Shown: in pieces, positions 13,008 through 60,198 of the stretch | How the letters are laid out: each line of letters begins with the position of its first letter | Position numbering within the stretch: the first letter of the stretch is position 1 | Assembly: GCA_965202855.1 (NCBI GenBank) | Contig: CBDBBP010000004.1 | Span: 1,107,213-1,171,212 of the forward strand | Origin: Arenicellales bacterium | GTDB taxonomy: Bacteria; Pseudomonadota; Gammaproteobacteria; Arenicellales; JAJDZL01 | Reading direction: 5' to 3' | Length of the DNA stretch: 64,000 nucleotides | The notes under the pieces: generated by a model | The model's input: only the letters and a program-made list of their open reading frames with translations | The model's database searches: none | Told to the model about the DNA's origin: nothing | Position numbers and translations under genes: made by a program

Positions 13008-13010
13008 AAA

Positions 13011-13820: not shown

Positions 13821-13826
13821 GAGCGA

Positions 13827-14741: not shown

Positions 14742-14830
14742 GAGCGACGATAAACGACTACACTAACAAATTAAATTGGTTCTTTTGCAGGGTACACAAA
14801 AAAGCAAGGGTATTTCTTGAGTTAGAATGC

Positions 14831-14870
14831 AAAAATGGGGATGCTCAGTTTCCGAGCTTCCCCACTTTTT
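14831..14870 (-). terminator. intrinsic terminator/attenuator between the binding-protein gene and the permease genes
   Basis: GGGGATGCTC (14837-14846) pairs with GAGCTTCCCC (14854-14863) at 9 of 10 positions with a 7-nt loop. It is flanked by an A-run and a T-run, so a U-tract follows on either strand. Confidence 0.55.
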
Positions 14871-14919
14871 CTTGTTTCAAAACGGTTGAAATCAGTGTTT
14901 TAAGAAATGGACGAGAAAC

Positions 14920-41612: not shown

Positions 41613-44424
41613 TCGATCTTTGCCTCTTTGAATCTGAAATGGAAACTACTTTGCGAGTTACGGACAGTGCATCGGTAACCAAGCGTTGTTGTTGTACTAA
41701 GTGAACACGATAATTCCCGACTGCAGGTGCAGGAGCTTCATCTCGAGACACGCAAGTGAATTTCTGGTTCTTTCTCAAACAATCGCGAATGAGATGCCAA
41801 ATTTGGTACCAAGCGCCCTGATTCCTCGGTTCTTCCTGGCACCATACGACTTCTTGTGCCTTGGGGTAATTCCTAAGAACGAAATTCAATACATTGACTG
41901 GAAATGGATAAAGCTGTTCAATTCGAATAATAGCAATATTGCGAATATTCAAGTGTTCCCGCATATGATAAAGATCGTAGTAGACTTTACCCGTACACAA
42001 AATAATACGAACGACTTCATCACGTCGAATTGATCGATTAGTTTCGTCTATTACAGTGATAAATCCAGAATCCGACAGATCGCTAATATCCGAAATGGCG
42101 AGCTTGTGTCGCAGCAAGCTTTTTGGTGACAAAACTATCAATGGATGGCGGTATTTTCGCAGAATTTGCCGTCGCAGCAGATGAAACATTTGCGCAGGTG
42201 TTGTCGGAATGCAAACCTGTATATTGTCGCCAGCACATAGCTGCAGAAATCTTTCAAGTCGAGCGGATGAATGTTCCGGTCCCTGTCCTTCGTAACCATG
42301 TGGCAACAGCATTACCAAACCACAGAGCCTCCCCCACTTTACGAAACCACTACTGATGAATTGATCAATGACAATCTGCGCGCCGTTGGAGAAATCACCA
42401 AATTGCGCTTCCCAAATAACAAGTGTTTCGGGATCGGTGGTTGAATAGCCATACTCAAATGCAAGCACTGCTTCTTCGGATAGCAGCGAGTTGTAAACTT
42501 CATAATTGTCCTCAGTACGAATCGATTTCAGAGGACAGTACACACCTCGGCTATTCTGATCGTGCAACAGCGCATGACGATGTGAAAATGTTCCACGACC
42601 AACATCCTGTCCGGTCAAACGAACCTGGTATCCGTCATCAATCAGAGAGGCATAAGCCATCGTTTCCGCAAATCCCCAATCGATCGCTTTTTCCCCCAAT
42701 GACATGCTGGTGCGGTCGGACACAATTTTTTGAACCCGATTGTGCAGTGTGAAATTTTCCGGCAATTCCGTCAGCTGCTTCTGCAGCTTTTCAATTCTCT
42801 CTCGAGAAACGCTTGTGTCGACTGGATCTGTCCATTGTGCAGACATGTATCGATTCCAATCGACAATTTTTTCCATTTTTGCAGGATCAATAATCTGACC
42901 GGCCACGACTTCACCTCGGTCAAGCTCGTCGCGGTAATCCAGAACCATCTTTTGGGCTTCAGTATCGGAAATCACTCCTTTTTGGGCCAAATCCTGCGCA
43001 TACATGCGTCGAATTGGGACGACTTGCTTGATTCGCGAATACATGACGGGCTGTGTCATCATCGGTTCGTCCGCTTCATTGTGACCATATCTTCGATAAC
43101 AGACCATATCGATCACAACATCCGTATGAAATTCCGTTCGGTAGGCATGCGCCAGTCGAGCCACTTTTACCACAGCTTCAGGGTCGTCACCGTTTACGTG
43201 AAATATGGGTGACTGCACCATCTTTGCCACTTCCGTGCAATGAATCGTAGAGCGCGCATCCGCCTTATTGCTGGTGGTAAATCCAATTTGATTGTTGATG
43301 ATGATATGGATGGTGCCACCTACCCCGAATCCTCGAGTATGTGACATGTTAAAGGTTTCCATCACCACGCCTTGACCGGCGAATGCCGCATCTCCATGCA
43401 CGACAATCGGCGTCACTTCTTTCCAGGAATTATCTTCACGACGATGCTGTCGGGCGCGAACCGAACCAACTACGACAGGATTAATGATTGCCAGATGAGA
43501 TGGATTAAATCCCAAGGCAACATGAACAATTCCACCGGAAGTATTGATGTCGGCCGAAAATCCCATGTGATATTTCACATCGCCCTGATCCTTCCAGACA
43601 CCGCTGACTGCCACATTCCCTTCAAATTCACCAAAGACTTCGGCGGGTGATTTACCCAATACGTTAACTAGAACATTGAGCCGGCCGCGATGAGCCATTC
43701 CGATTACGACTTCTTTGCCGCCAGTTTTGCCTGACAGCTCAACCAACTCCGTCAACATAGGAATGAGTGATTCACCGCCTTCCAGTGAAAATCGCTTCTG
43801 ACCGACATATTTCATGTGCAAGTATGTTTCCATACATTCGGCCATTGTCAACGCTCGCAAAATTCGCTTGCGGTCATCATCGGTTACGACTGGGTGCAAA
43901 TTTTCGTTTTCGACTCTGGATAACAGCCATTCCAGACGATCTTGTTCCGAAACATGCATAAATTCGTAACCAATCGAGCTGCAGTACGTCTTATCGTAGA
44001 ACTCCAGGATTTTTCTGAGCTCCATGGACTTCGTGTCTTCAACTGCGTCGATCTTAAAAATTTCATTCAGGTCGCTTTCGACCAAACCAACGGATTCAAG
44101 GCTCAGATCGGTACTGGGTGCGACATCTTCGAGTCCCAGCGGGTCTAGGTTGGCGTTCAAATGCCCATAAACTTGATATTTGCGAACCAAACGCTGAACT
44201 GCGGCCTGACGACGAATACTGTCATGATCCACATACTCGTGCGCATAACCTACTCCAGGCAGAAATGGCTTATGTTCGGTGGTTTCAAAATCCGAAAAGG
44301 TTTCATTCCATTCCTGAGTGACTTTTTCGGGTTCCGAATGATATTGATCATACAGACTTTCGAGATAATCAGCGTTACCTGAAAAGAAAGCGGTTTCTTG
44401 AGTTGGACTTTTTGATGTACTCAT
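41602..44424 (-). CDS. sucA: 2-oxoglutarate dehydrogenase E1 component
   Basis: 940 aa, with SucA size and motifs ([42 protein letters not shown]). Overlaps sucB by 11 nt. Confidence 0.96.
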
Positions 44425-44509: not shown

Positions 44510-44814
44510 TACTGCGAGTGACAAGACTCTACTGAAAACTATCAAATTAAACACAGTTTTCAAAAGAATTGACGATTAATTTATCGGTTTAATTATAAAA
44601 CATTTACAGCATTTAGATTTTATTGATGATGCACGAAATCTTCAAAAATTGAGAATGTTGATTTTACGCTTTGCAGAACATATCGGAGCGTAACATATCG
44701 ACAAATTTTTGCGAGATTAACCGAATATGCCTAAGTTCAAATTACCTGATGGTATTCTGATAAATGCTCACAGTAACGAGAGAGTTGACTCAGTATAAAA
44801 ATAATTATTCAATG

Positions 44815-44878
44815 TCACTTGAAACCAACCACAGCAAGATTCAACTTCACTTGAAACGATTAACAGCAAGCTTCAATA
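44815..44878. repeat. two tandem 32-nt units in the AT-rich spacer region
   Basis: TCACTTGAAACCAACCACAGCAAGATTCAACT is followed by TCACTTGAAACGATTAACAGCAAGCTTCAATA (about 25/32 identical). Confidence 0.5.
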
Positions 44879-45149
44879 GTGTCGCTCGTCGAGAGAAACA
44901 CGAATTTGATTCAATTGCTTCTGCACCCGTTTCATCATGTGATGTGTTTTTAGTCAAAATTAGATAAGAAAATTCGTTTATTAGATTAAATCATGCCAAA
45001 AACTAAATTCACCTAATAAATATTCTCGAATTTCGTCTACTGGCGTGCCACTTATTCAAACTAGCAAGCATGTCCAGAAGAATCTGAGATTCCTAAGAGG
45101 CAAATTACAAAAATAGTACCGAACAACAAACTAGGAGAGATCCAAAAAG

Positions 45150-45395
45150 ATGACCAAAAAAAAGAATATGGCAGCGTTGACTTACCATGAAATGCATACT
45201 GATTCTCCAGACGAGCGAGGATCATTCTGGCGTACTGTACTTGATATACTCAGCAGCGGTGGGGGCGTCAATCCCGATTTCGGTGAAATTCGATATCCGA
45301 AGAATGCACAAAAACAGGATTTAGAGCGAATCGGTCAGGATTTTTCTAGAACACTTAGTAAATTTGACTCTTCAAAATTACATCGAAACGGCTGA
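45150..45395 (+). CDS. hypothetical small protein next to the CRISPR array
   Basis: 81-aa ORF with an AGGAGA 9 nt upstream of the ATG. No motif I recognise. An adjacent +1-frame ORF stays open to 45528. Confidence 0.4.
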   Translation: MTKKKNMAALTYHEMHTDSPDERGSFWRTVLDILSSGGGVNPDFGEIRYPKNAQKQDLERIGQDFSRTLSKFDSSKLHRNG

Positions 45396-45540
45396 GCGCA
45401 ATAAAGCCACTTCTGAGAAAGAATTCACCGAGAAAGAATCCTCTAGATCCGAATCTACTGAGAAAAATTCTTCGACATTTCGTATCGGTTGGGTATTAGA
45501 AGTATTAGTTAATGACCCGAAAGAGACATGATTCCCTTCG

Positions 45541-45557
45541 GTTTAAATTGCTGAAAC
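45541..45557 (+). repeat. internally deleted CRISPR repeat remnant
   Basis: GTTTAAATTGCTGAAAC equals repeat nt 1-14 (2 substitutions) joined to the last 3 nt of the repeat. A 21-nt spacer-like segment follows, then the degenerate first full repeat. Confidence 0.6.
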
Positions 45558-45578
45558 TTATGCTCCCACGCGAAATAA

Positions 45579-48500
45579 GTTTCAGTTACTGAGTAATCAG
45601 GTATATTGGTGAAACTTTTCGAGCCGCGAGCGAACTTGGAATTCGGACAATGTTTCAGTTGCTGAGTAGTCAGGTATATTGGTGAAACTTGAAGGCTATG
45701 AGGGAGAACGACACGCATTCACTGTTTCAGTTGCTGAGTAGTCAGGTATATTGGTGAAACCCCATTACGCTGCCCATCAGCCAAAACCAGATCATGTTTC
45801 AGTTGCTGAGTAGTCAGGTATATTGGTGAAACTTCAAGCGTTACTTGAATTGACGGCTGTCGTAAGTTTCAGTTGCTGAGTAGTCAGGTATATTGGTGAA
45901 ACAAAAGCAAACAACCGGATCAACAAGTCTTATGATTGTTTCAGTTGCTGAGTAGTCAGGTATATTGGTGAAACTGCCCTCCGATCTTGCGTTGCGTCAC
46001 TGCTTCCTGTTTCAGTTGCTGAGTAGTCAGGTATATTGGTGAAACTCAAGTTGATCGTGCGGGTCCGTCAGGAAGTCATTTGTTTCAGTTGCTGAGTAGT
46101 CAGGTATATTGGTGAAACCGCGAAAGGTTCAATCCGTTCCGGCACGTCTCGAGAGTTTCAGTTGCTGAGTAGTCAGGTATATTGGTGAAACTGCCCTCCG
46201 ATCTTGCGTTGCGTCACTGCTTCCTGTTTCAGTTGCTGAGTAGTCAGGTATATTGGTGAAACGTGTCAGACTTATGCGACCGTGATAGAGGCTTAGTTTC
46301 AGTTGCTGAGTAGTCAGGTATATTGGTGAAACCGAAAAAACTGGATGTAAACCTTGTCCATACAGGTTTCAGTTGCTGAGTAGTCAGGTATATTGGTGAA
46401 ACATCAATCCCAGTCGGAACCAAACAAATGTGATACCTGTTTCAGTTGCTGAGTAGTCAGGTATATTGGTGAAACAGCAAAACGATTTGCAGTTGAGCCG
46501 CAAAACGTTCTGTTTCAGTTGCTGAGTAGTCAGGTATATTGGTGAAACTCTGCAAAACTCCAGGTTGCGACAATCATCGGACGTTTCAGTTGCTGAGTAG
46601 TCAGGTATATTGGTGAAACACAGTTGTTCAACGAACACGTAGATATTTTCAAAGAGTTTCAGTTGCTGAGTAGTCAGGTATATTGGTGAAACGCAGATCC
46701 ACGGGATTATCAAGAGTTCGAACTACGAGTTTCAGTTGCTGAGTAGTCAGGTATATTGGTGAAACTGAAGGATGCGTAGCATAGACGCTTCGGTCATTAG
46801 GTTTCAGTTGCTGAGTAGTCAGGTATATTGGTGAAACTTGGCAATCCTCCATTCTCCGACCGAGCAATCACAGGTTTCAGTTGCTGAGTAGTCAGGTATA
46901 TTGGTGAAACTCCGATATCGGCGACCACCTAAACCACATGAAACAGTTTCAGTTGCTGAGTAGTCAGGTATATTGGTGAAACCATGAAGAGGGTAAAACC
47001 TACCGCTTGAGCAAACAGTTTCAGTTGCTGAGTAGTCAGGTATATTGGTGAAACTTGAACCACACACCGAAGCGAGGAACGAATCTTAGTTTCAGTTGCT
47101 GAGTAGTCAGGTATATTGGTGAAACCGAATGGTGCGAGGTGTCTAACTATAGGTATGCGCGTTTCAGTTGCTGAGTAGTCAGGTATATTGGTGAAACTAC
47201 ACGGTGTAGTGCAACCGCTTCGTTCATCCAGTGTTTCAGTTGCTGAGTAGTCAGGTATATTGGTGAAACCTTGATAAATCCCGCTGACGGCTGCGAGTAT
47301 GATCAGTTTCAGTTGCTGAGTAGTCAGGTATATTGGTGAAACCCAAAAAGAGTATTACAAGGTTGACAGTTTAGAGTGTTTCAGTTGCTGAGTAGTCAGG
47401 TATATTGGTGAAACTCAAGCTCAGATGAAACATGAGATTCCTGAGATCAGTTTCAGTTGCTGAGTAGTCAGGTATATTGGTGAAACGGCTCAGATAATAG
47501 TCGGACGTCTGGATCTTAAGGGTTTCAGTTGCTGAGTAGTCAGGTATATTGGTGAAACTGGTTGATCCATTAGATTATGAGTCAGGTGTGATAGTTTCAG
47601 TTGCTGAGTAGTCAGGTATATTGGTGAAACCAAAAGACAACGGTATCCTTGAAGTCATACCCGGCAGTTTCAGTTGCTGAGTAGTCAGGTATATTGGTGA
47701 AACTATTTAACGAATGGCAAATTAGAGAAATATACCAAGTTTCAGTTGCTGAGTAGTCAGGTATATTGGTGAAACGGTGAAATTTTGTCTATCTCAATTC
47801 CGTCTGGCATGTTTCAGTTGCTGAGTAGTCAGGTATATTGGTGAAACCGCACTGTGCCGACATACGGGTGAACTTCCCCTGAGTTTCAGTTGCTGAGTAG
47901 TCAGGTATATTGGTGAAACGATGAATTCGTTGAATAGCGCCAGCGATAAAGAGTGTTTCAGTTGCTGAGTAGTCAGGTATATTGGTGAAACCCAGAGAGT
48001 CGTCAACCGTGTCGTCAGATCTCAGAATGTTTCAGTTGCTGAGTAGTCAGGTATATTGGTGAAACGATTTGAGTGCTATAAGTCATGTGTGCCCTTAGAA
48101 TGTTTCAGTTGCTGAGTAGTCAGGTATATTGGTGAAACGCTGCCATGCTGACCGTCGACGGCGCAGAGGGAGTGGTTTCAGTTGCTGAGTAGTCAGGTAT
48201 ATTGGTGAAACGGTGTTGCGGATGACAATGTTGCAGTATTTCATATGTTTCAGTTGCTGAGTAGTCAGGTATATTGGTGAAACTGCTCAGGTCTTCAAAC
48301 ATGGCTAGGTTGTTATTGGTTTCAGTTGCTGAGTAGTCAGGTATATTGGTGAAACTGGATCGAGACACGTTTGAGCGAATTGTTCTGGAATCGTTTCAGT
48401 TGCTGAGTAGTCAGGTATATTGGTGAAACCGGGAAGGGAGAGCTCATCGAGGCCATGGCCAGGATGTTTCAGTTGCTGAGTAGTCAGGTATATTGGTGAA

Positions 48501-48865
48501 ACCGTTAAATTCTTTAAAATCCCTTTTAGTGTTGAAGTTTCAGTTGCTGAGTAGTCAGGTATATTGGTGAAACTTTGATTATTGGTTCGTCTTCGCGGGA
48601 GAGTGGGCGTTTCAGTTGCTGAGTAGTCAGGTATATTGGTGAAACTAGGATTCGTTCTTGCAGTTCAAACATTTAGCCTCCGAGTTTCAGTTGCTGAGTA
48701 GTCAGGTATATTGGTGAAACGAATTGCTAGGGGTGGAGGAAGCTTGCGACACGTAGTTTCAGTTGCTGAGTAGTCAGGTATATTGGTGAAACGTTGAACA
48801 GGTATATGATAGCGGTGATTTTGGGTATGTTTCAGTTGCTGAGTAGTCAGGTATATTGGTGAAAC
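45579..48865 (+). CRISPR. CRISPR array, 46 repeats / 45 spacers, type II-B
   Basis: The 37-nt repeat is GTTTCAGTTGCTGAGTAGTCAGGTATATTGGTGAAAC. I located 46 copies by hand. The first copy (45579-45615) carries G10A and G18A, and all the others appear identical. Spacers are 33-38 nt. The strand is assigned from the tracrRNA anti-repeat and from the 5' GTTTCAGTTGCTGA shared with the F. novicida crRNA repeat. Confidence 0.98.
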
Positions 48866-48973
48866 TCCATTCGATTTCTGTTTAAGAACAGTAATATATG
48901 GAAAATATGAGGGATAATATTTTCGAAAATGACCTTTCTGTACGAAAATCGACATTTTTTGCGAAAATATCTC

Positions 48974-49002
48974 TTGTGTAAAAGGAATGATTTCAATAAA
49001 AT
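48974..49002 (+). promoter_or_regulatory. sigma-70-type promoter of the tracrRNA
   Basis: -35 TTGTGT (48974-48979), a 17-nt spacer, and -10 TAAAAT (48997-49002). This predicts a start about 7 nt downstream, exactly at the anti-repeat. Confidence 0.6.
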
Positions 49003-49008
49003 TAAGAA

Positions 49009-49134
49009 AACCAATATAGTTGACTACTGATGCACTGTAATCATAAAAAAGTATTTTGATCGGACCTCTGCCTAGCACGTCTGAAATTGATTAGTAAAAT
49101 AGGATATCCACCCTTGGTTGGATATCCTATTTTT
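49009..49134 (+). ncRNA. tracrRNA
   Basis: The anti-repeat AACCAATATAGTTGACTACTGATGCACTG pairs with repeat nt 5-32 (perfect blocks of 9 bp and 8 bp). Downstream, GTAATCATAAAAAAGTATTTTGATCGGACCTCTGCCTAGCACGTCTGAAATTG is near-colinear with the F. novicida tracrRNA/sgRNA scaffold as I recall it. It ends in a 12-bp hairpin plus a T-run. Confidence 0.88.
49099..49134. terminator. bidirectional intrinsic terminator shared by tracrRNA and the convergent cas operon
   Basis: ATAGGATATCCA (49099-49110) / TGGATATCCTAT (49119-49130) with an 8-nt loop. AAAA lies upstream and TTTT downstream. It sits 17 nt past the cas4 stop. Confidence 0.8.
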
Positions 49135-49150
49135 ATGCTTCTCATCTACT

Positions 49151-49759
49151 TTAAAGTCTGTCATTACAAAAGTTAATGTATTCGCAGGAGCAACATTGAA
49201 AGACCGATGCATTGGAGTCAGGTTTCACACCGAGAGTTAGCATTTGTCGTATTGCATCGGCAATTTGTAAGACTTTTTGCCTTCTGTCTGTACTGATTTC
49301 AATGGTGTGCAACATTTTGCCTGCTCCAACAAGAAATCCATACTGGCTTGGTTTCGAAAAATGACTTTCTAACAGCATCGCATATGCAGTCAACTGCATA
49401 ATATCTCCGCGTTTTTTATTGCTCGCCGATATTTTGAACTCGATTGGATAAACGGCTTCATTAGTTTCAATAGCCATGTCAACAATACCGTGAATGCCAT
49501 AAAGATTATCCCGTATAGCGAGTTTGTAGAATTTCTCGCCATCTTTTAATTTAAACCGAGATAGATTGCGGCGCTGCCACAATTTTTCTTCCAACTGATG
49601 AAAATATTCGCCCTGTTTCACCCATAGTGGATAATTAGCAACAATATCTGTTAGTTCAATATAGTAAACAACTCTTGGGCAATAACACCACTGCCGCAAT
49701 AGGTTCGCAGGCACACTAAATGACTTCTGTTTCATTCCAATCTTTAAAGTCTTTAGCAC
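49151..49759 (-). CDS. cas4: CRISPR-associated exonuclease Cas4
   Basis: 202 aa with PD-(D/E)xK core (VDMAIE...PIEFK) and the 1+3 cysteine Fe-S pattern (WCYCPR near the N-terminus; CCSCEYINFC at the C-terminus). Confidence 0.9.
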   Translation of the reverse strand: MLKTLKIGMKQKSFSVPANLLRQWCYCPRVVYYIELTDIVANYPLWVKQGEYFHQLEEKLWQRRNLSRFKLKDGEKFYKLAIRDNLYGIHGIVDMAIETNEAVYPIEFKISASNKKRGDIMQLTAYAMLLESHFSKPSQYGFLVGAGKMLHTIEISTDRRQKVLQIADAIRQMLTLGVKPDSNASVFQCCSCEYINFCNDRL

Positions 49760-50039
49760 TGTATCCGATGAAAAAACTTTTCCCTCTACCGTTAAAATTA
49801 GTTCGAGTAATGAAAACTTTGTCAGTACTCCTAAAGTTAGTCTTCAGGAACCGTTTGATGGCCTCTGTTTCAGCGGTTGTTAAATATCCCCAAAACACGG
49901 ATTTCTGTACGGGTTTTAATCCCAATTTGCTCAGTTCATTGAAGATTTCAGTGCGCAGTTTATTGTTCGAAATATCGTAACTAACAAGATATTCTTGTCG
50001 GAGTGGATGCGTCATTCGATAAGACCGATTCTCTACCAC
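49716..50039 (-). CDS. cas2: CRISPR-associated endoribonuclease Cas2
   Basis: 107 aa. LVSYDISNNKLRTEIFNELSKLGLKPVQKSVFWGYL is the Cas2 ferredoxin-fold N-terminus. Located between cas1 and cas4. Confidence 0.88.
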   Translation of the reverse strand: MVENRSYRMTHPLRQEYLVSYDISNNKLRTEIFNELSKLGLKPVQKSVFWGYLTTAETEAIKRFLKTNFRSTDKVFITRTNFNGRGKSFFIGYSAKDFKDWNETEVI

Positions 50040-50992
50040 TTGAAAAGATATGGCCTGTAAGTTTTCTCTCCGTAAAAATGCCCGCAGAGTCTATAAATCT
50101 GCCTTTGAATAATATGTTCCAGTTTCAGCTTTCTTTTTCTATATAGATAACTTCTCGCACAAGTTCGTTGAACTTCAGATATTAGTGCCTTTTTTAGTTC
50201 CACATCTAAATCTTGCTTCTTTTCAATTCTAGAGCGCAATTTGATAACGACTCTGTCTACTACCCAAGAACGATATTCTTCCATCAGATCCAATACCAAT
50301 GCCATTTTGCCTGGACGTCTGCCATGTAGAATGCCGAGATAAGGTTCCAAGCCAGCATTGATGATCGAACTTAGAATGTAGGCACTTAGCATCGCGTATC
50401 CAAAGTTCAGCATGACATTATTGAGTTCTTGACTTCCGCGCCCTTCGCGTCTGCAGAACGAAGATGAAAATAAGCCGGCATTGCGCAATCCTCCAAAATA
50501 AGCACTCGCACTAGCACCTTCGTACCCTAAAAGGGTTTGAAAGTGACTTGTCTTATTAGCTTGGTTGGCGTAATCCAGTAGTTTTACAGCAGTTGACTGT
50601 AATTCCTCATTCTGATGATATTTACCCAGATGTTTAATTACTGCACGCTGATTCTTTATCTTCGCAACTACGATTTTTTTTGCGAGTGGCAGGGTGTCGC
50701 CTTGACAATATTTCATTTGCGCCATGCGAACGGCAACCACTCCGTGTTGTGATTGCCCTAGAATTGCTGAATGGGCTACACCACGATAATCTAAGAAGAA
50801 TAACTTAATGCCCCGAACACTAAACGCCTCAATTAAATCACTCGAAATACTAATTCCACGTTTTGCTATCGATACGGTACACAGACGATTAAGAGGATAA
50901 TATTTGGTGGCATTACCTCGCTGTTTGACCGCTAAACGATGACGCTCTAATCCAAGAAAAGTGCCGTAATCACATATTACTAGGTGCTTCAC
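50033..50992 (-). CDS. cas1: CRISPR-associated endonuclease Cas1
   Basis: 319 aa. The N-terminal beta domain begins LVICDYGTFLGLERHRLAV. The C-terminal helical domain carries conserved acidic/His residues (LGYEGASASAYF, LGILHGRRPGKMALVLDLMEEYR). Confidence 0.92.
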   Translation of the reverse strand: MKHLVICDYGTFLGLERHRLAVKQRGNATKYYPLNRLCTVSIAKRGISISSDLIEAFSVRGIKLFFLDYRGVAHSAILGQSQHGVVAVRMAQMKYCQGDTLPLAKKIVVAKIKNQRAVIKHLGKYHQNEELQSTAVKLLDYANQANKTSHFQTLLGYEGASASAYFGGLRNAGLFSSSFCRREGRGSQELNNVMLNFGYAMLSAYILSSIINAGLEPYLGILHGRRPGKMALVLDLMEEYRSWVVDRVVIKLRSRIEKKQDLDVELKKALISEVQRTCARSYLYRKRKLKLEHIIQRQIYRLCGHFYGEKTYRPYLFKW

Positions 50993-51103
50993 TGCATTAA
51001 ATTATCCTCTTCGCTTTAGTTCCTCTACTAATTTACGCTTTTCTCTAAACTGCACTCGATATTAAATGCGAAACATTGCATGTACACCAATTCAAAGGAG
51101 TGT

Positions 51104-54100
51104 CTACGTTTCGTTCGAATCGCCGAAATAATACTGCTGTAAAATCTTACTCAAGGAACTCTTTATTTCGTTTGAAAAACCGTCTGCTTTGTACTCCATT
51201 AATTCAAACTCATTTGAATTCAAATTAGTTAGAAATTTCTCTTTCAATTTTTGAAAACTATCTTTTCTAGGCTTAAGTAAAGGGTCTTGAAATATCTCTT
51301 CAATTTTTTCTCTGGCCACCTGCTGATCGAATTTAAAGCGGATTCGAGGGCGAGTATTGTCTTCAATTCGGTATTCCAGTTCAGTCACACCATTTCTTTT
51401 CAAAGATTCGTTAAGTTCCACTCTATGCCATTTTTCCGTGTCAATCAATTTAACGGTATCACTTCGTTCAGAATTGTATTTTTGTCTCTTCAAAAAAAAT
51501 GTGTTCTGAGATTTGGCTGACTCGGAGAGTAACTTACCAATCTTACCTTCACTGTTGCAAACCGGGATAAACGCTTTGGCACCTAGTTTTTGAGAATTCG
51601 AATCATTGACGATCTGAAAAATTGGACTGTTGTTCCAAGATTTTCTCTTCAGCAACCTGTGCCCTTGATTCGATTTTATGGGCAATGAATAAACTTGACG
51701 AAATTTTTTGTGAGGGTGTTGGTGTCTATACCTGAAAAATCCTCTCAAAAATTCTCCATTTTCTAATTCTGATGACTTCTCCCATGCGTCAATGAGCATT
51801 TTCCATTCATTTCTCACTGGCAATATGAGATTCCCTTGATCTTTTGATAACTTAAAATTTTGCCCATTGTTCAAAATTTTCTTCGCATCATCCAATGTTG
51901 TGATTTGTTTTTTCTCAGTTCGATAAGAAAGCTTTTTTCTAAGAAAATTCATCTCATTGCTATAAACTTGACAACCTTTAGCCGTATTGTAGTTTTCTAT
52001 GTAATGAGAGTGGATCATTCGTGTATTCAATGAGATACAGAAATAGTCATTTTTTGATTTAAATCCAACTTGGATTAGCTGAGACCTTAGTGTCTGGAAA
52101 GTATCTTCTTCATTTAGTGCCAATAATTTTTTTTTGCGATTGAACTGAAGGGCAAAATTCAATTTTTCTCGATTTGGTTTGTAGTCTTTGAGTGGAAAAC
52201 TGTTCTTCCAGTCAAATCCAATACGAACTTCCGATAATTTTCGGTGTACAAGGATCGGCAGATAATGTTCGGCGTACATTCCATCGCGATGAATGGAGCG
52301 ATGTTTGAAATACTGTCGGTCAGGTTTGCGACGTTCCAAGGAAACCTCTCGGAAATTTTTTGGTTCAACTTGAATAGCCTTGAAGAGACTGTCATCATAG
52401 ACTCGAAAATGTGCGTTTTCCATTTGGCTCACTAATTGATCAACACGAGACCAAATTCCCGTTTTTCCCAATTCAAGCCTCAAACTTCCACTGCCGCGAT
52501 GTGCATCTGCCACCATGCAGAATGCCACTTGCGCATCTAACAGATGAGAATACGGTTTCTGAGGCGAATTATCACTTTTACTGTAGCTGGCTAGATCTGG
52601 GCGATAATAGGTAACCAAATCATGACGCAAATTGTGTATTCCATCGCCCCGGGAATTGTCCCGCGCTTCCACTCCAAAATAGTCAAATGAAAGTAAGTGA
52701 TGTTTGTCAATTCTTTTTGCTTTCTTATAAAGTGCGTTGGCTAATACTTCCGCAAAGTATCGTTGGGTTCCATTAACGAGCGATTTGGTTCGATGATTGA
52801 TAGTGCTAATAACGAGCTCTCGAAGGGGGTCACCTGCTTTGAGGAATAGTGCGTGTCGAAATGCTTTTCGTTGTTCTTTCGTCAAATTTATAAAATTGAA
52901 ATAGCGTCCAAATTTGAACTGCCCTCCTTGACCGTCGCCAATTGTATCTTTTATCCGTTTCTCTATTCGCGAGTCGTCAGCGGTTCCGAAAACGTGACGT
53001 TTGTAATGGGGATGCAAATCTGAAAGGGAAAATTCTGAATCTCCTTTATTTGCACGATTGTCTTGTTCACTGGTAAAAATCAGATTTGCTTCATCATTAA
53101 GCGTACCCCATTTAGGATGCGCTCTGGGAATAATATGATCGATATCCCCCGTGTTCCCCAATGTTACTCCTGAATATGGCGAAATTTGGGTTGATTTTCT
53201 GACTCTATTTCTTTTTGAATGTTGTATCTTCTTCAGGTCACTTGAATTAAATTCTCTTTTTCTTTTGTTATACTCCCTCGCGTCCAAATAGGGCCTTTTA
53301 AGCTCTAGCAAATTTGGTTCAAACTGAAACCGATTAGATTCTGTAATTATTGGTATCCGAACTTCTATACCCGATGATAAATTCTTCTCGATTTTTAACC
53401 ATTTATCTTTTGCGATAGCTGCGCCTAAAATTCGAGCTAGACGCATCACTGCACCATCAATCAGTCTGGTCGGAATCGCAGGCAAGCGTTGGGCTTTTAC
53501 ACTTTTTTCGAACATTTGCATTCTTTGGGCGTTATCCAAACTACAAACAGAGCAAGTTTTTGCATTTCCACGGCGCTCCTTGAATGCTATGTTGTTAATC
53601 TGAGCAAGCAGAAATACAGCACTTGCTGGATGGTCTTGAAGACTTTGATTCCATTTCTCTGATTGTGATTCATCATACAGTCGACTTCCTATTTCTCCAC
53701 ATACTTCAAGACACTTTTTTACAAGTTTGAATAATTCTTCATGAGAATTAGACTCACCCCAAACTTCAAGAATTTTATCCTTCAGCTGCCCACGGAATTT
53801 TTTTTGTTCCTTAGCTGCATCTGCGCTATTAGTCTTCAAGCCCTTGATATTTTTCAACCAAATTGTCAGCTCGGTATGGTCATTAGATTTTGTTCGTTTT
53901 TTAAGTTGCTTCGGGGATATCTGAAATAAGCCAGCTATATCACTGATCAGCTGATAACGCTTTTGTCTTGGCTTATGGTTGCAATAGGTGAGCAGGTGAT
54001 CACGGTCTTCAAAACGTCCAGTTTTTTTGAATCCACGACCTTTTATTAAGCGATACTCGGGATGAATGAATATCCTACCATCGCGCGCTTTCTGCCGATT

Positions 54101-56047
54101 TTTGTAATAGTTGCAGATTAAATGCATGAAACTCCCTTGAGCAAAGACACCGCTGTCATCGTAGTTCGGCCGTGTTTTGAAATTATCAGGCAATCTGCTG
54201 CAGTTCATCGCTTTTGCTAATTTTTCTCTCGTTTTCTCACGGTCTTTCCGACTAGACTGTTGTTGGCGAATTTTTTTCGTATGACTGAAAATTTCATTTA
54301 GCTTCAGTACGTCTTCGTCTTTCACCCGGTCTAATAGAAACTGCAATATTCGAGCGTCCAAATCCTTAGCAGTTCTGCACCCTGAATCTCTCTGAGGCGA
54401 ATTGGTTAACTTGCCACCAAAATAAGCAGTGCCTTTACTGCTCTTCAACTCTTCCATTTCCTTCTTGTAATTTCCTAGATATCCTTTTACTTCCGGCAGG
54501 CGCAACAGTTCTTTCAGCCATATTCTCCAGTCTCTGTAATCGTTATCCAAGAATTCTGTGTTGAGTACCAAGCTCTGACATTTCGGCGGACGCCGATTGT
54601 TTTTATCTTGGTATGGAGGAATAGTAAATAAAGGAGATTGCTCAAGCCAAAATTCAACAACGCTACCTTGATGAGCTTTGCATATTGAGCGAAGTTTTTG
54701 GTAGTCATATTCTGCGCCTGGTGCTTTGTCCAAGTCTTTTTCCGGATTTACGCGCCACTCCCGAAGTATCCAGTGTTCAAACTGATCTTTCAAGCGACTC
54801 CTGTCCCAATAATCACCCTGTTTATGTCTTTTTTCGTTGAAATATTTTCTGAGAGGTTTCAGTTCCAAATTACTCAAGTGACCGATGAGATTTGCCAGTG
54901 ACTGAGGAGTGAGAGAAGTACCATTTTGGATTCTAAATTCACCGGAATGCAGTCTCGTGCAGAATGAATTCAAATAGCCATGTTGGTGGTTCACGCATTC
55001 TAAGGTATCTTTAATCTCTTGAAAATATTTGCTTCTATGACGAGCACCCGTACTTAACTCCTGAATTACCGTATGCAAAGCGAATGCGAAGTGATGGATA
55101 TGAGTTCTTAACCAATTCTTCCGCGCTTGAAGAATTCTTTTATTTACTCTATTGGAATTATTCGATGTTTCTATCGGGTCGAACGAGGCTTTTTCGAGCT
55201 TAAACTTTTCGGCATCAAAGTTCCATATTGAAGCGTTCAATTCAGCATTTTCTTTTTCCAAGTCGGTGGGTAGACTGCTAAGAATTTCACTGGCAACCGA
55301 AGAGCTCTTCTGATTGAGTTTTTCAGCTAAGTCGACTGTTCTTCCTTCGTCTCGAATACAGTGTAACCCAACAATGCCCATATCATCCCAAGCATCAAGA
55401 ATCCATTCATTTAATCTAAACTTGTCTTGAGTTCGTTTGTTTACCTCTATCTGACTCCCTCCAATCCTTGTTTTACAACTTTCCTTCAGTAATTTTGTAC
55501 GATTAATGATTAGAAGATTGCGTTTAATCTTTTTCGGTTTTTCAATAACAGACTTGAATATTTCCTTGATTTCAGATCGACCATGCTGCTTCCATTCGGA
55601 CATCTTTTCATCTAAATTACAGGTGTCTCGTATTTCACCAAATTGATTCTGGACCGCTTCTGGAAGTTCCCTAAATGCAGGCTCTGGAAAGTACTTTAAG
55701 GCTTCTGCATCATATTCTTCGGACAGATAACTAAACCCTCTGCGATTGAACAGAAAACCGATAGTCTGCTGAGTCTTTACGTCCCATTCCAAACCAAACT
55801 CTTGGCACCAGATCAGTCGAAACAAACGCTTTACCATTTGCCTGCGTTTGTATCCTCGCCGTTGATGACGTCTGGCAGTTCTTTCGGGCATCATTAACGT
55901 AAATGCGTTTTTCTCCAACTGATACACTTTTCCTTCTTTCTCAATTTCTCCTAGAGAACTTCCAGCTTGATAATGAGCGAAGTACACTCCAGTGCTTTTC
56001 GAACCAAGATCTATGGAAATAGGACTAATTACTAATCGTTTCGGCAT
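51104..56047 (-). CDS. cas9: type II-B CRISPR-associated endonuclease Cas9 (1647 aa, FnCas9-like)
   Basis: RuvC-I ISIDLGSKSTGVYF; Arg-rich bridge helix RTARRHQRRGYKRRQMVKRLFRLIW; RuvC-II IPIITESNRFQFEP; HNH DIDHIIPRAHPKWGTLNDEANLIFTSEQDNRANKG; RuvC-III SHLLDAQVAFCMVADAH. Long colinear blocks match F. novicida Cas9 (e.g. LELKPLRKYFN, TIPPYQDKNNRRPPKCQSL, LTYCNHKPRQKRYQL, AQRLPAIPTR). Confidence 0.97.
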   Translation of the reverse strand: MPKRLVISPISIDLGSKSTGVYFAHYQAGSSLGEIEKEGKVYQLEKNAFTLMMPERTARRHQRRGYKRRQMVKRLFRLIWCQEFGLEWDVKTQQTIGFLFNRRGFSYLSEEYDAEALKYFPEPAFRELPEAVQNQFGEIRDTCNLDEKMSEWKQHGRSEIKEIFKSVIEKPKKIKRNLLIINRTKLLKESCKTRIGGSQIEVNKRTQDKFRLNEWILDAWDDMGIVGLHCIRDEGRTVDLAEKLNQKSSSVASEILSSLPTDLEKENAELNASIWNFDAEKFKLEKASFDPIETSNNSNRVNKRILQARKNWLRTHIHHFAFALHTVIQELSTGARHRSKYFQEIKDTLECVNHQHGYLNSFCTRLHSGEFRIQNGTSLTPQSLANLIGHLSNLELKPLRKYFNEKRHKQGDYWDRSRLKDQFEHWILREWRVNPEKDLDKAPGAEYDYQKLRSICKAHQGSVVEFWLEQSPLFTIPPYQDKNNRRPPKCQSLVLNTEFLDNDYRDWRIWLKELLRLPEVKGYLGNYKKEMEELKSSKGTAYFGGKLTNSPQRDSGCRTAKDLDARILQFLLDRVKDEDVLKLNEIFSHTKKIRQQQSSRKDREKTREKLAKAMNCSRLPDNFKTRPNYDDSGVFAQGSFMHLICNYYKNRQKARDGRIFIHPEYRLIKGRGFKKTGRFEDRDHLLTYCNHKPRQKRYQLISDIAGLFQISPKQLKKRTKSNDHTELTIWLKNIKGLKTNSADAAKEQKKFRGQLKDKILEVWGESNSHEELFKLVKKCLEVCGEIGSRLYDESQSEKWNQSLQDHPASAVFLLAQINNIAFKERRGNAKTCSVCSLDNAQRMQMFEKSVKAQRLPAIPTRLIDGAVMRLARILGAAIAKDKWLKIEKNLSSGIEVRIPIITESNRFQFEPNLLELKRPYLDAREYNKRKREFNSSDLKKIQHSKRNRVRKSTQISPYSGVTLGNTGDIDHIIPRAHPKWGTLNDEANLIFTSEQDNRANKGDSEFSLSDLHPHYKRHVFGTADDSRIEKRIKDTIGDGQGGQFKFGRYFNFINLTKEQRKAFRHALFLKAGDPLRELVISTINHRTKSLVNGTQRYFAEVLANALYKKAKRIDKHHLLSFDYFGVEARDNSRGDGIHNLRHDLVTYYRPDLASYSKSDNSPQKPYSHLLDAQVAFCMVADAHRGSGSLRLELGKTGIWSRVDQLVSQMENAHFRVYDDSLFKAIQVEPKNFREVSLERRKPDRQYFKHRSIHRDGMYAEHYLPILVHRKLSEVRIGFDWKNSFPLKDYKPNREKLNFALQFNRKKKLLALNEEDTFQTLRSQLIQVGFKSKNDYFCISLNTRMIHSHYIENYNTAKGCQVYSNEMNFLRKKLSYRTEKKQITTLDDAKKILNNGQNFKLSKDQGNLILPVRNEWKMLIDAWEKSSELENGEFLRGFFRYRHQHPHKKFRQVYSLPIKSNQGHRLLKRKSWNNSPIFQIVNDSNSQKLGAKAFIPVCNSEGKIGKLLSESAKSQNTFFLKRQKYNSERSDTVKLIDTEKWHRVELNESLKRNGVTELEYRIEDNTRPRIRFKFDQQVAREKIEEIFQDPLLKPRKDSFQKLKEKFLTNLNSNEFELMEYKADGFSNEIKSSLSKILQQYYFGDSNET

Positions 56048-56730
56048 GAGAGTTCTGTCTCTTAATGTGAGGAATGCAATTATTCACTCGCATTCCACGT
56101 TTGAAGTTTTTTGTGAAGATGGTAATAATTATATAAATTCAAGCACATCGCTATACTCAACTCTGTTATCAGGACGAGACCATTCGTAAATTCGGTTGCT
56201 CGTACTTGAATTCTGGAAATGCACTTGATCGGGACTGACATAAAATGCATACGTCTACAATTCGTAGTGAAAACGCTACAGTCACTTTTTAAATCAGGAA
56301 TCTCAGTCAATAGCACTATCATCGCGTAAGATCCGGTACTGAATCCGATTTACATGTTGATTTCCAGTTAAATACTCACAAGAATGAGAAAGTTGGCTCG
56401 GCATAACAGAAAAGTTTTCAATACCGCTTTAAGCCAACCGCAGCTAAACTCAATTATCTTGCCGGTATCGAGTAACACTAATAACGCTGTGAGCAACACA
56501 GACTTGATTTTAGAAGATATTGGAACACTATGTTTCCAAGTGTTAGCGTAACACGTCAATATAAGACGGATAATTTGCAATTGGTTGTTTTACAGAGGCA
56601 CCTATTCCCTTGTGCCATTGTCTAATTCGAAAATTTAGGAATTCCTAGCGCAGTAATTCACACATGCATGCCAAGTGCTGCGCTCTCAAATAAGTACGTT
56701 GAACGCAGTTCCTGCTGCACTTAACGTCGA

Positions 56731-59700
56731 TTAGCTTTCTTTTGTTGCTTTCAATTCGGTCAACAGATCTTTTGCATCAACATTGTCACCCACTGCGACC
56801 AAGATAGATTCTACGGTTGCAGCAACAGCAGTACGAATGGCAGTTTCCATCTTCATCGCCTCAATTGTCAACAGCACATCACCCGCTTGAACTTGCTGAC
56901 CGACACTGACACTGACAGAAGAAATCATGCCCGGCATTGGAGATATGACATGATCTGGATTTTCTGGATCCCCTTGAGGACGTTTCTCAATTTTGAGTGA
57001 AAATTTTCGATTGGGAACCTTAGCTGTTCGCGGCTGCCCGTTCAATTCGAAAAACATCTGCACATTTCCGTCTGCGTCGGTCTCACCTACAGCCAGACTC
57101 TGTATCACTAAAGTCTTGCCCAACTCCAAGTCCACCGAAATTTGCTGATCTGATTTCATGCCGTAGAAAAACACAGGCGTCGGCAGGATATGCACCGGTC
57201 CATATTCTTCACGATGGGACATATAGTCAGCGAAAACCGCGGGATACATCAAATGAGACTGAAACTCCTCGTCAGTGATTTTTCGCCCTACGCGGGTATT
57301 GGCGTTGTCACGCATCGCGGCTAAATCCGCCGGTGGTAAATTTTCACCCGGGCGGTTGGTCATAGGTTTTTCACCCTGAAGCACTTTTTTCTGTAGCTTT
57401 GAGGGAAATCCACCTGGAGGCTGACCAAGTTCTCCAGCAAAAAATGACTTCACTGAATCCGGGAATGCCACTTCCTTATCTGGATTTTGAATATCCTCAG
57501 CGCTAACCCCCGAACTGACCATCGATAAAGCCATATCACCGATCATCTTGGAAGTTGGAGTCACTTTGATCACATCACCAAACATTTCATTCACAACTGC
57601 ATAGGCTTCTGCCACCTCGGGCCAGCGATTTTGCAATCCCATCGCACGAGCTTGTTCTTTCAGATTGGTAAATTGACCTCCGGGCATCTCGTGCAAATAA
57701 ACCTCAGATGCACCAAACCGGACGTCACTTTCAAATGCTGCATAGTGTCGCCGCACAGCTTCCCAATAACCTGAAAAAGCCATGACCTGATCAGAATTTA
57801 TGCCGGTATCGTATCCTGTGCCCTGGAGTGCTTTGACAACCGATCCTAAATTGGGCTGAGAGGTGATTCCAGATACCGAATCCATCGCCAGATCAATTGC
57901 GTCAGCACCGGATTCGACGGCTGCAATGACACTAGACGCTGCGATGCCGCTGGTGTCATGAGTATGAAAATGCAATGGGAGTCCAGTCTCATCCTTCAGC
58001 GCCTGCACTAAAGTTCTTGCACTTTTCGGTGTGAGCAGTCCCGCCATATCCTTAATGCACAGAATATGTACACCTGCGTCTGCCAAATCACGTGCCATTT
58101 TGATGTAGTAATCCAGCGTGTATTTCTTACGCGCAGAATTATGGATGTCGCCGGTATAGCAAATCGCACCTTCAAGCAGTTTCCCAGCCTCCAAGACTGC
58201 ATCCATCGCCACGCGCATGTTGTCCACCCAGTTCAGGCAATCAAATACCCGAAATAGATCGATGCCTGATTCTGCGGCTTGCAAAACGAAACCCCGAACT
58301 ACATTGTCAGGATAATTCTTGTAGCCTACTCCATTTGCTCCGCGCAATAACATCTGCAGCAGGATGTTCGGAACCCGGCGACGCAGTTCTTCTAATCTTT
58401 GCCAAGGGCATTCCTTCAAAAACCTCATGGCTACATCAAAGGTCGCGCCACCCCAACATTCCAAGCTGAAGAGGTTTGGTAAATTTCGTGAATAGGATTC
58501 CGCTGCGTAAATTAGGTCATAAGTACGAAATCGAGTCGCTAACAAGGATTGGTGGGCATCTCGAAAAGTGGTATCCGTTACCAAAGCCCGCTTTTGCTGC
58601 AGCATCCACTGAGAAAAACGCTCTGGGCCTAGTGCATCCAAAACTTGTCGAGTCCCGGTTGGTTGATAGTCGACTGCAAATTCTGGAACGACAGCTTTTA
58701 ATGTGGTTCCAGGATGTGGCCGATCCTTTACTTCCGGATTTCCATTTACCGTAATGTCCGCAATGTAGCGCAGAAGGCGTGTTGCCCGGTCTCGTCGCTG
58801 CGGAATGTGCAGTAATTCAGGAGTTTCATCGATAAACCGTGTGGTGTACGAACCGTCAAGAAAGGTCTTGTGCTGTATCAGATTTTCCAAGAAAACAAGA
58901 TTCGTCGCAATTCCGCGAATTCTGAACTCACGAAGAGCGCGATGCATTCTCCGAACAGATTCTTCCGGTGTTTGCGCCCACGCTGTAACTTTTTCCAGAA
59001 GACTGTCGTAGAATCGCGTGATCACGGCTCCCGAATACGCAGTTCCGCCATCGAGTCGAATTCCAAAACCAGCCGCACCTCGATATGCAGATATACGCCC
59101 ATAGTCAGGCAGAAAATTTTCGCGTGGATTTTCTGTTGTCAATCGACATTGAAGCGCATATCCATTAATTCCTATTTCATGCTGATGAGGCACGCCAGAA
59201 CTTGCAATATCGCCGATTGCCCCTCCTTGAGCGAGTCGGATCTGCGCCTTTACAACATCAATACCGGTAATCTCCTCTGTGACCGTGTGCTCGACCTGAA
59301 TTCGAGGATTAACTTCAATGAAATAAAACTCCCCAGTATCGTCATCGAGTAAAAATTCTGCAGTGCCTGCATTGGTATAACCCACCGAACGAGCGAGGCG
59401 GAGCGCTGCGCTACATAGTGCGTTTCGCTGCTGGTTGGACAGGAAAAGCGCCGGTGCTCGCTCAATGATTTTTTGATTCCGACGCTGAATGGAGCAGTCT
59501 CGTTCAAATAGATGAATTATGTTTCCATGCAAATCGCCGAGCAGCTGAACTTCAACATGCCGCGCACGGCGTATCAGTTTTTCCAGATAAACCTCGGTAT
59601 TGCCAAAGGCAGCCAGGGTCTCTCTGCGACCGATTTCAACTGTTTCTTCCAGCTGGCTCGCATCGTCAATCACACGCATGCCTCTTCCGCCACCACCCCA

Positions 59701-60198
59701 GGATGCTTTCAACATCAGCGGATAGCCAATTTTCGATGCGATTTTTCGCACCTCTGCGGGGTCTTCCGGCAAGGCGGATGAAGCAGGTAACACAGGAACA
59801 TTTACTTTTTGTGCTTCTTCCCTCGCACTGACTTTGTTACCAAGTCGACGCATGACTTCTGGCGTTGGACCGACGAAGCGAATTCCCTTCTCTATGCAAG
59901 CTTCAGCAAAATCAGGTCGTTCTGAAAGAAATCCATAACCAGGGTGAATTGCATCAACTTTTCTCGATACCGCAATATTCAAAATATCTCTGATGGCGCC
60001 ATAAGCCTGAATTGGGCCTAATCCGGTGCCGATCTGGTAGCTTTCGTCGGCTTTGAACCGATGCAAAGAAAACTTATCCTGTTCGGCGTAAACACCAACA
60101 GTTCGAATGCCAAGTTCACTCGCAGCGCGAAAAACTCGGATTGCAATCTCACTTCGATTTGCGACTAAAAGTGTATTGATGGGTTTGTAGGTATTCAT
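56731..60198 (-). CDS. pyc: pyruvate carboxylase (single-chain)
   Basis: 1155 aa with an N-terminal biotin carboxylase/ATP-grasp domain, a carboxyltransferase domain with HFHTHDTSG, and a C-terminal biotinyl domain with EAMKME. Confidence 0.95.
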   Translation of the reverse strand: MNTYKPINTLLVANRSEIAIRVFRAASELGIRTVGVYAEQDKFSLHRFKADESYQIGTGLGPIQAYGAIRDILNIAVSRKVDAIHPGYGFLSERPDFAEACIEKGIRFVGPTPEVMRRLGNKVSAREEAQKVNVPVLPASSALPEDPAEVRKIASKIGYPLMLKASWGGGGRGMRVIDDASQLEETVEIGRRETLAAFGNTEVYLEKLIRRARHVEVQLLGDLHGNIIHLFERDCSIQRRNQKIIERAPALFLSNQQRNALCSAALRLARSVGYTNAGTAEFLLDDDTGEFYFIEVNPRIQVEHTVTEEITGIDVVKAQIRLAQGGAIGDIASSGVPHQHEIGINGYALQCRLTTENPRENFLPDYGRISAYRGAAGFGIRLDGGTAYSGAVITRFYDSLLEKVTAWAQTPEESVRRMHRALREFRIRGIATNLVFLENLIQHKTFLDGSYTTRFIDETPELLHIPQRRDRATRLLRYIADITVNGNPEVKDRPHPGTTLKAVVPEFAVDYQPTGTRQVLDALGPERFSQWMLQQKRALVTDTTFRDAHQSLLATRFRTYDLIYAAESYSRNLPNLFSLECWGGATFDVAMRFLKECPWQRLEELRRRVPNILLQMLLRGANGVGYKNYPDNVVRGFVLQAAESGIDLFRVFDCLNWVDNMRVAMDAVLEAGKLLEGAICYTGDIHNSARKKYTLDYYIKMARDLADAGVHILCIKDMAGLLTPKSARTLVQALKDETGLPLHFHTHDTSGIAASSVIAAVESGADAIDLAMDSVSGITSQPNLGSVVKALQGTGYDTGINSDQVMAFSGYWEAVRRHYAAFESDVRFGASEVYLHEMPGGQFTNLKEQARAMGLQNRWPEVAEAYAVVNEMFGDVIKVTPTSKMIGDMALSMVSSGVSAEDIQNPDKEVAFPDSVKSFFAGELGQPPGGFPSKLQKKVLQGEKPMTNRPGENLPPADLAAMRDNANTRVGRKITDEEFQSHLMYPAVFADYMSHREEYGPVHILPTPVFFYGMKSDQQISVDLELGKTLVIQSLAVGETDADGNVQMFFELNGQPRTAKVPNRKFSLKIEKRPQGDPENPDHVISPMPGMISSVSVSVGQQVQAGDVLLTIEAMKMETAIRTAVAATVESILVAVGDNVDAKDLLTELKATKES

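Follow-up and report, generated by a model that had tools for sequence, protein, structure and literature searches.

Between the genes sucA and pyc of an Arenicellales-related gammaproteobacterium lies a group of cas genes beside a repeat array, which raises the question of whether this locus is a complete CRISPR-Cas immune system and to which subtype it belongs. The locus is part of a 64,000-nt stretch of the contig CBDBBP010000004.1 (GenBank assembly GCA_965202855.1), and this whole stretch is hereafter called the window. The analysis of its genes, array, and guide RNA elements indicated that the locus is very probably (with a probability of about 0.93, as judged from the sequence) a complete, chromosomally encoded adaptive immune system, namely a type II-B CRISPR-Cas9 of the Francisella (Csx12) type.

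The list of open reading frames (ORFs) of the window contains four consecutive minus-strand ORFs, for which Pfam, NCBIfam, and PADLOC gave concordant identities as cas9, cas1, cas2, and cas4. Neither csn2 nor any additional ORF was found within the cas operon in the ORF list or by Pfam. The array and the gene of the trans-activating CRISPR RNA (tracrRNA) lie on the plus strand, opposite to the cas operon. Two related loci were used for comparison throughout: L002, which belongs to a conspecific genome (ERZ26693581, 4.38 Mb) and encodes a Cas9 85-86% identical to that of the window, and L001, which belongs to the Arenicellales metagenome-assembled genome (MAG) OY282380.1 and encodes a Cas9 76% identical. 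The features of the locus are as follows:

45541-45557, plus strand: truncated repeat remnant GTTTAAATTGCTGAAAC, 17 nt, read from the sequence
45579-48865, plus strand: CRISPR array, 46 repeats of 37 nt and 45 spacers
48866-49009, plus strand: leader-like region from the array end to the tracrRNA, conserved in the window, L002, and L001
49010-49134, plus strand: tracrRNA gene with the anti-repeat, a core like that of Francisella novicida (Fn), and a terminator
49151-49759, minus strand: cas4, 202 aa; TIGR00372, 92.6 bits; PADLOC Cas4_II, 204 bits over the full length
49716-50039, minus strand: cas2, 107 aa; Pfam CRISPR_Cas2; PADLOC Cas2_II, 103 bits
50033-50992, minus strand: cas1, 319 aa; TIGR00287, 201 bits; PADLOC Cas1_II, 405 bits over residues 1-319
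51104-56047, minus strand: cas9 of the Csx12 type, 1647 aa, ATG start; Pfam, NCBIfam, and PADLOC
56048-56141, minus strand: conserved region upstream of cas9, presumed promoter and 5' untranslated region (UTR), from a three-way alignment

The likely ATG start of cas2 is at 50015, which gives a protein of 99 aa and matches the gene call in L002. The Cas4 protein has the RecB-type nuclease motifs and a C-terminal cysteine cluster, its cysteines being at positions 25/27 and 189/190/192/198. The original prediction had described cas9 (1647 aa), cas1, cas2, and cas4 on the minus strand together with 46 repeats, 45 spacers, and a tracrRNA. The gene calls were borne out by the ORF list and the profiles, and the array and tracrRNA by the repeat count and the repeat:anti-repeat duplex. 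The strand assignment stands for the cas genes and had to be corrected for the array and the tracrRNA. The start of the predicted locus at 45541 coincides with the 17-nt repeat remnant.

To which subtype the system belongs was determined by profile searches and by comparison with the Cas9 of F. novicida (FnCas9). The Cas9 of the window scored 577.3 bits against the NCBIfam equivalog TIGR03031 (cas_csx12; cut-off 399.4), matched the Pfam family Csx12 (PF21069) at 3.2e-114, and was called Cas9b by PADLOC at 1.6e-173. The best PADLOC profiles of Cas1, Cas2, and Cas4, which form the adaptation module cas1-cas2-cas4, were those of type II as well (Cas1_II, Cas2_II, and Cas4_II). A phmmer search against the PDB aligned Cas9 residues 7-1642 with residues 5-1625 of FnCas9 (5b2o, 9ehf) in a single stretch (1169 bits); the identity to FnCas9 (P0100, 1629 aa) is ~40-43%. 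The RuvC residues D13, E903, H1168, and D1171 align with D11, E898, H1162, and D1165 of FnCas9, and the HNH residues H971 and N997 with H969 and N995, H971 being preceded by D970. In an alignment of 16 II-B Cas9s sharing 40-86% identity with the query, D13, E903, D970/H971, N997, H1168, and D1171 all occupy invariant columns. The II-B subtype, the colinearity with FnCas9, and the intact RuvC and HNH motifs had all been proposed originally, and all of them held in these searches and alignments. The residues R1566 and R1594 are the aligned counterparts of R1556 and R1585 of FnCas9, the arginines that read the GG of the protospacer-adjacent motif (PAM). The nearest Cas9 homologues are 85% (P0002) and 76% (P0003) identical, and 252 Csx12-type proteins were found at E <= 1e-20. 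Since so many homologues exist, II-B is a minor but not a very rare subtype, and the earlier description of it as rare stands only in the weaker sense.

The array consists of 46 copies of the repeat GTTTCAGTTGCTGAGTAGTCAGGTATATTGGTGAAAC, with 0 expected in 100 shuffles. Forty-five of them are identical, and the first, cas-distal one (45579-45615) carries two substitutions; the 45 spacers between them are heterogeneous and 33-38 nt long. The remnant at 45541-45557 precedes the array at its old cas-distal end, is kept in L002, and pairs poorly with the anti-repeat (-7.8 kcal/mol). The tracrRNA gene sits between the array and cas4, whose 3' end converges on it. Its anti-repeat is located at about 49010-49041, and the tracrRNA 5' end ACCAAUAUAGUUGACUACUGAUGCACUG forms a duplex of -32.9 kcal/mol with repeat positions 5-32. 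This is followed by the Fn-like core CTGTAATCAT..GTATTTTGATCGGACCTCTG..CACGTCTGAA and, at 49096-49134, by a terminator hairpin with a T-run, which was identified by eye and by folding.

The window, L002, and L001 agree in 94% of the tracrRNA region. In a tracrRNA alignment of six loci including that of Francisella (L005), the core CTGTAATCAT..AAAAG..TTGA.C.GACCTCTG..CACGTC is invariant and nine pairs of the terminator stem show compensatory changes. The cognate duplexes were the most stable ones, indicating that the repeat and the anti-repeat co-vary. The position of the anti-repeat also defines the plus strand as the sense strand of the CRISPR RNAs (crRNAs), antisense to the cas operon. A candidate tracrRNA promoter (TTGTGT at 48974-48979 and TAAAAT at 48997-49002) was read by eye; it was missed by the promoter and terminator scanner, which, around the array and the tracrRNA, reported no signal beyond that expected from shuffles. 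The Rfam search gave no family match in the locus.

Subtype II-B has been characterized by a Csx12-type Cas9 together with Cas4, repeats of 37 nt, an anti-repeat adjacent to the array, and transcription of the array in the direction opposite to the cas genes, the last being documented for F. novicida (Chylinski 2013, PMC3737331). On the sequence evidence, the II-B assignment of the locus in the window holds because of the Csx12 profiles, the colinearity with FnCas9, the invariant catalytic residues, the type II Cas1, Cas2, and Cas4, the Francisella-like repeat length, the orientation of the array, and the tracrRNA scaffold.

In the proposed mechanism, Cas1, Cas2, and Cas4 would insert spacers of ~35 nt where the array ends on its cas-proximal side, beside the leader at 48866-49009. 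Transcription of the array would run along the plus strand, in the direction opposite to the cas operon, and the predicted crRNAs would carry the 3' handle GUUUCAGUUGCUG... The tracrRNA of ~125 nt, encoded on the same strand just downstream, would pair through its 5' anti-repeat with each repeat. RNase III would then presumably process the crRNA:tracrRNA duplex, and the Cas9 of 1647 aa, once loaded with it, would cut matching DNA by its HNH and RuvC sites beside a probably NGG-like PAM.

The spacers were examined for signs of recent acquisition and for their targets. No spacer of the window is present in the array of the conspecific L002 (10 repeats) or in that of L001 (41 repeats), which argues for a recent turnover of the spacers. 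Two spacers, at 45975-46008 and 46192-46225, are identical and lie three units apart, and several others are loosely alike; this suggests the repeated sampling of related targets. Spacer 1 (45616-45651), the oldest by its position, matches the sense strand of pyc at 29 of 36 positions (60098-60133, codons 22-34) and the pyc of L002 at 30 of 36 positions. Six of its seven mismatches to pyc affect third codon positions, and TGG follows directly after the match. Thus, spacer 1 looks like a sequence captured from a diverged pyc homologue. As the mismatches include the PAM-proximal (seed) positions 2, 3, and 6, self-targeting of pyc by this spacer is unlikely. The protospacer searches described below returned no match, so the PAM can only be inferred. 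It is probably NGG-like, given the conserved counterparts R1566 and R1594 and the TGG that follows the single protospacer-like match.

The surroundings of the module were compared with those in related genomes. The features involved are as follows:

41602-44424: sucA (2-oxoglutarate dehydrogenase E1), flanking gene
44706-56722: variable segment, lying between the conserved promoter region of sucA and the stop codon of pyc, with the CRISPR-Cas module and ~1.4 kb of unassigned flanking DNA
56731-60198: pyc (pyruvate carboxylase), flanking gene

The module of ~10.6 kb (45541-56141) lies within this 12-kb variable segment, flanked by sucA-sucB-lpd on one side and by pyc on the other. Its insertion between sucA and pyc, also proposed originally, was confirmed by synteny: pyc lies directly before sucA in L003 (pyc 86% identical, 811-bp spacer) and in L004 (75%, 428-bp spacer). 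A further state of the interval was found in L015, a locus of the MAG OY282380.1, the one named genome behind the assignment of the organism; its pyc and that of the window belong to one cluster at 90%. The homology to L015, 84.7% identical in DNA in the flanks, stops at 44705 and resumes at 56723. Its own pyc-sucA interval (L015, 13477-20092) encodes a restriction-modification enzyme of the MmeI family, 961 aa long, and a 712-aa GmrSD_N/SLFN_AlbA_2 protein, and the II-B locus L001 of the same MAG lies ~200 kb from there in a different genomic context. Meanwhile, L002 has the same order pyc-cas9-cas1-cas2-cas4-array-sucA as the window, with flanking genes 97-98% identical; the insertion is not unique to the strain of the window.

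As the interval is empty, occupied by a II-B CRISPR-Cas system, or occupied by a restriction-modification and a GmrSD-like gene in related genomes, we conclude that it behaves as a variable defense hotspot. That conserved core genes may enclose defense islands and integration hotspots is a general concept. The intergenic DNA of L003 and L004 is too diverged to give exact breakpoints, and the boundaries were taken from L015 and L001; the part common to the window and L001 extends from the first repeat to about 56141, beyond which L001 diverges. At the site in the window, neither an integrase nor a transposase nor flanking direct repeats could be seen, and homologous recombination through the flanks is our default guess for the mechanism of exchange.

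The unassigned flanking DNA contains small ORFs at 44764-44967, 45150-45395, 56080-56322, and 56368-56580. None of the four has a Pfam match, the last three have no PADLOC match, and the one at 45150-45395 has no NCBIfam match either. This 81-aa ORF, on the plus strand between sucA and the array, is open in L002 and differs there by nine non-synonymous changes and one synonymous change. Its coding status is doubtful, unless it encodes a very fast-evolving small protein. A 32-nt tandem repeat of 2.2 copies (44807-44876), also between sucA and the array, is kept in L002. On the other side of the module, a 7-bp inverted repeat (GGAATGC..12 nt..GCATTCC, 56071-56096) lies inside the conserved 95 nt upstream of cas9 and may be a candidate operator or a 5'-UTR hairpin.

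The evidence for a complete II-B immune system has to be set against several points that weigh the other way. In FnCas9, a REC3 clamp has been described (PMC12231574). The corresponding segment is present in the Cas9 of the window and is 11 residues shorter; only Q717 and Q798 of the 11 cited contacts are identical, Y794 is changed to F, and K788, K789, S792, Q801, and N812 are replaced. The scanner gave no convincing promoter upstream of the array. The protospacer searches gave 0 matches for all 45 spacers, concatenated, by blastn against 50,697 GenBank phages, for five spacers, each by its 3' 23-24 nt, against IMG/VR, and for two spacers against the JGI metagenomes.

Nevertheless, the system appears to be intact and working, as suggested by the intact catalytic residues, the 45 identical repeats, and the lack of spacers common with L002 and L001. 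An improbable alternative is that the locus is intact and no longer immune, either as a decaying remnant or as a system co-opted for regulation, as is the F. novicida Cas9 that is guided by the small CRISPR-Cas-associated RNA (scaRNA) and represses host lipoprotein genes. The dual function of FnCas9 is documented (PMC12231574), and both the partial match of spacer 1 to the neighboring pyc, followed by the NGG-like TGG, and the fruitless external protospacer searches could be read in its favor. However, the pyc match is mismatched at the PAM-proximal positions 2, 3, and 6, which makes stable binding unlikely, and the window lacks an orphan degenerate repeat or scaRNA analogue such as Francisella has. 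No orphan repeat with <=15 mismatches was found in the whole window except the anti-repeat itself, and the best duplex of the flanks with the tracrRNA reached -18 kcal/mol versus -32.9 kcal/mol for the true repeat. A decay of the locus is at odds with the identity of 45 repeats, the intact catalytic residues, and the complete turnover of the spacer content between the conspecific genomes.

Even less credible is the view that the Cas9 belongs to II-A, II-C, or an unclassified type II variant and resembles II-B only superficially. Nothing was found in support of it; a Pfam match to the HNH domain is not reported for this Cas9, but the same is true of most of the listed II-B homologues. The score above the TIGR03031 cut-off, the full-length colinearity with FnCas9, the Csx12 domain PF21069 in 120 of the 120 homologues listed, the 37-nt repeats, and the presence of cas4 with the absence of csn2 all speak against such a view. 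An assignment to II-A or II-C by the fourth gene (csn2 in II-A, none in II-C) was ruled out, as the fourth gene is cas4. Equally negligible is an artefact of assembly, in which the pyc and sucA junctions would join a low-GC CRISPR contig to housekeeping DNA in a chimeric MAG. The source is apparently a metagenome-derived assembly, and the guanine-cytosine (GC) content drops by ~8-10 points across the module (35-42% versus 44-49% in the flanks). However, the independent assembly L002 has the same pyc-cas9...array-sucA junctions, with junction DNA 93-95% identical, and this common gene order with near-identical flanks rules out a chimera. We therefore retain a complete II-B immune system as the explanation of the locus.

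How such a system would acquire its spacers was approached through the DNA next to the cas-proximal end of the array. In the window, box A (TTTCGAAAA) spans 48921-48929 and box B (TTTTGCGAAA) spans 48957-48966. Across eight II-B loci (the window, L001, L005, L006, L008, L009, L010, and L011; Cas9 identity 38-100%), a TTTCGCAAA-like box A is placed +54 to +58 past the cas-proximal repeat, followed by box B (TTTTGCGAAA) at +89 to +94. These offsets are constant regardless of where the tracrRNA starts, and TTTCGCAAA and TTTTGCGAAA are mutually reverse-complementary. The two boxes probably constitute an integration leader; the literature search yielded neither an account of a II-B leader nor the Fn guide sequence.

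The polarity of the arrays points to the same end. In the arrays of the window, L001, L007, L008, and Francisella, degenerate repeats occupy the cas-distal end. The loci L009, L012, L013, and L014, which encode an identical II-B Cas9 (P0084), have their arrays at about 12800-15500. In the comparison of L014 with the other three, most cas-distal spacers are common up to spacer 23 with few internal differences, and seven differing spacers each are found at the cas-proximal end. The strain-specific cas-proximal spacers together with the distal degenerate repeats indicate that acquisition occurs next to the boxes, at what would be the 3' end of the array in the direction of crRNA transcription.

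An extended -10-like motif (AGGTATATT) is present in every repeat of the window at positions 21-29 (e.g., 48849-48857). The pattern xGnTAnAnT is found at these repeat positions in seven of nine II-B loci, including Francisella; it is absent from L009 and ambiguous in L011. Upstream of the array, no conservation is seen between the DNA of the window and that of L001. The II-C systems of Neisseria and Campylobacter reportedly have promoters inside each repeat, and by analogy the II-B motif is compatible with repeat-internal promoters of this kind. Tentatively, II-B arrays, that of the window among them, may thus be arranged "backwards": acquisition at the cas- and tracrRNA-proximal end, beside the two-box leader, would take place at the 3' end of the transcript, and the crRNAs would possibly originate from repeat-internal extended -10 promoters. 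No description of such an arrangement was found in the searchable literature.

Two deviations in layout were seen among the compared loci. Two tracrRNA-like copies each are present in L009 (after the array) and in L011 (one at each array end). In L007 (4692-11848, Cas9 53% identical), cas1-cas2-cas4 are divergent from cas9 and the arrangement of array, tracrRNA, and cas4 is retained.

The cas9 genes of the window and the conspecific L002 were compared with the flanking genes. The 3' half of cas9 (51104-53500) is 83-86% identical in DNA, versus 97-98% for the flanking genes. The synonymous divergence (dS) is 0.28-0.38 in the C-terminal half of cas9 (aa 751-1647) and 0.06-0.10 in sucA and pyc, i.e., elevated 3- to 5-fold. 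The ratio of non-synonymous to synonymous divergence (dN/dS) is 0.35 for the whole cas9 versus 0.05 for sucA and pyc, and reaches 0.35-0.47 in places of the 3' half. In some Cas9 segments (e.g., residues 901-950), the similarity to the L001 allele exceeds that to the L002 allele, and the PI domain differs between the window and L002. These results suggest that the cas9 allele is a recombinant mosaic that is also evolving fast; if it is a mosaic, the 3' half of cas9 may alter PAM or anti-CRISPR interactions.

The locus is a further example of a well-known system rather than a novel kind, and close relatives of it are already present in public assemblies. It adds a well-preserved II-B system with a long array of 45 spacers from a little-studied marine, probably host-associated lineage. 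FnCas9 is unusually intolerant of mismatches (PMC12231574), which makes II-B Cas9s of practical interest. As the Fn guide scaffold and the PAM-reading arginines are kept, the ortholog in the window is unlikely to bring new targeting properties. More useful for biology are the pyc-sucA hotspot with its three occupancy states, the cas9 3' half that diverges several-fold faster than the genome, and the leader boxes. The boxes, together with the evidence on polarity, provide a starting point for the study of the little-examined II-B adaptation.

The comparison with known systems places the locus as follows. The locus of the conspecific L002 has an identical repeat, a near-identical tracrRNA and leader, and the same insertion site, with no common spacers. 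In L001, the repeat differs at three positions and the tracrRNA and leader are near-identical, again with no common spacers. In the type II-C systems of Neisseria and Campylobacter, transcription of the array runs opposite to that of the cas operon (PMC3737331). The array of the window is likewise antisense to its cas genes, whereas the II-C systems lack cas4. The system of F. novicida (L005, CP010103.1; PDB 5B2O, 9EHF) has the same gene order cas9-cas1-cas2-cas4, 37-nt repeats starting with GTTTCAGTTGCTGA as in the window, and an array that runs antisense to the cas genes and whose degenerate repeats are the cas-distal ones. Its tracrRNA is also located between the array and cas4 and has the same core CTGTAATCAT..AAAAGTATTTTGA.CGGACCTCTG..CACGTCTGAA. 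The two systems differ in that Francisella has a scaRNA-type orphan repeat ~170 nt beyond its array, which is missing from the window, and only a handful of spacers in comparison with 45. Their hosts differ as well, Francisella being an intracellular pathogen and the host of the window belonging to a marine Arenicellales lineage. The leader boxes are placed at the same offsets in both systems, and the catalytic residues as well as both PAM-reading arginines are conserved between them.

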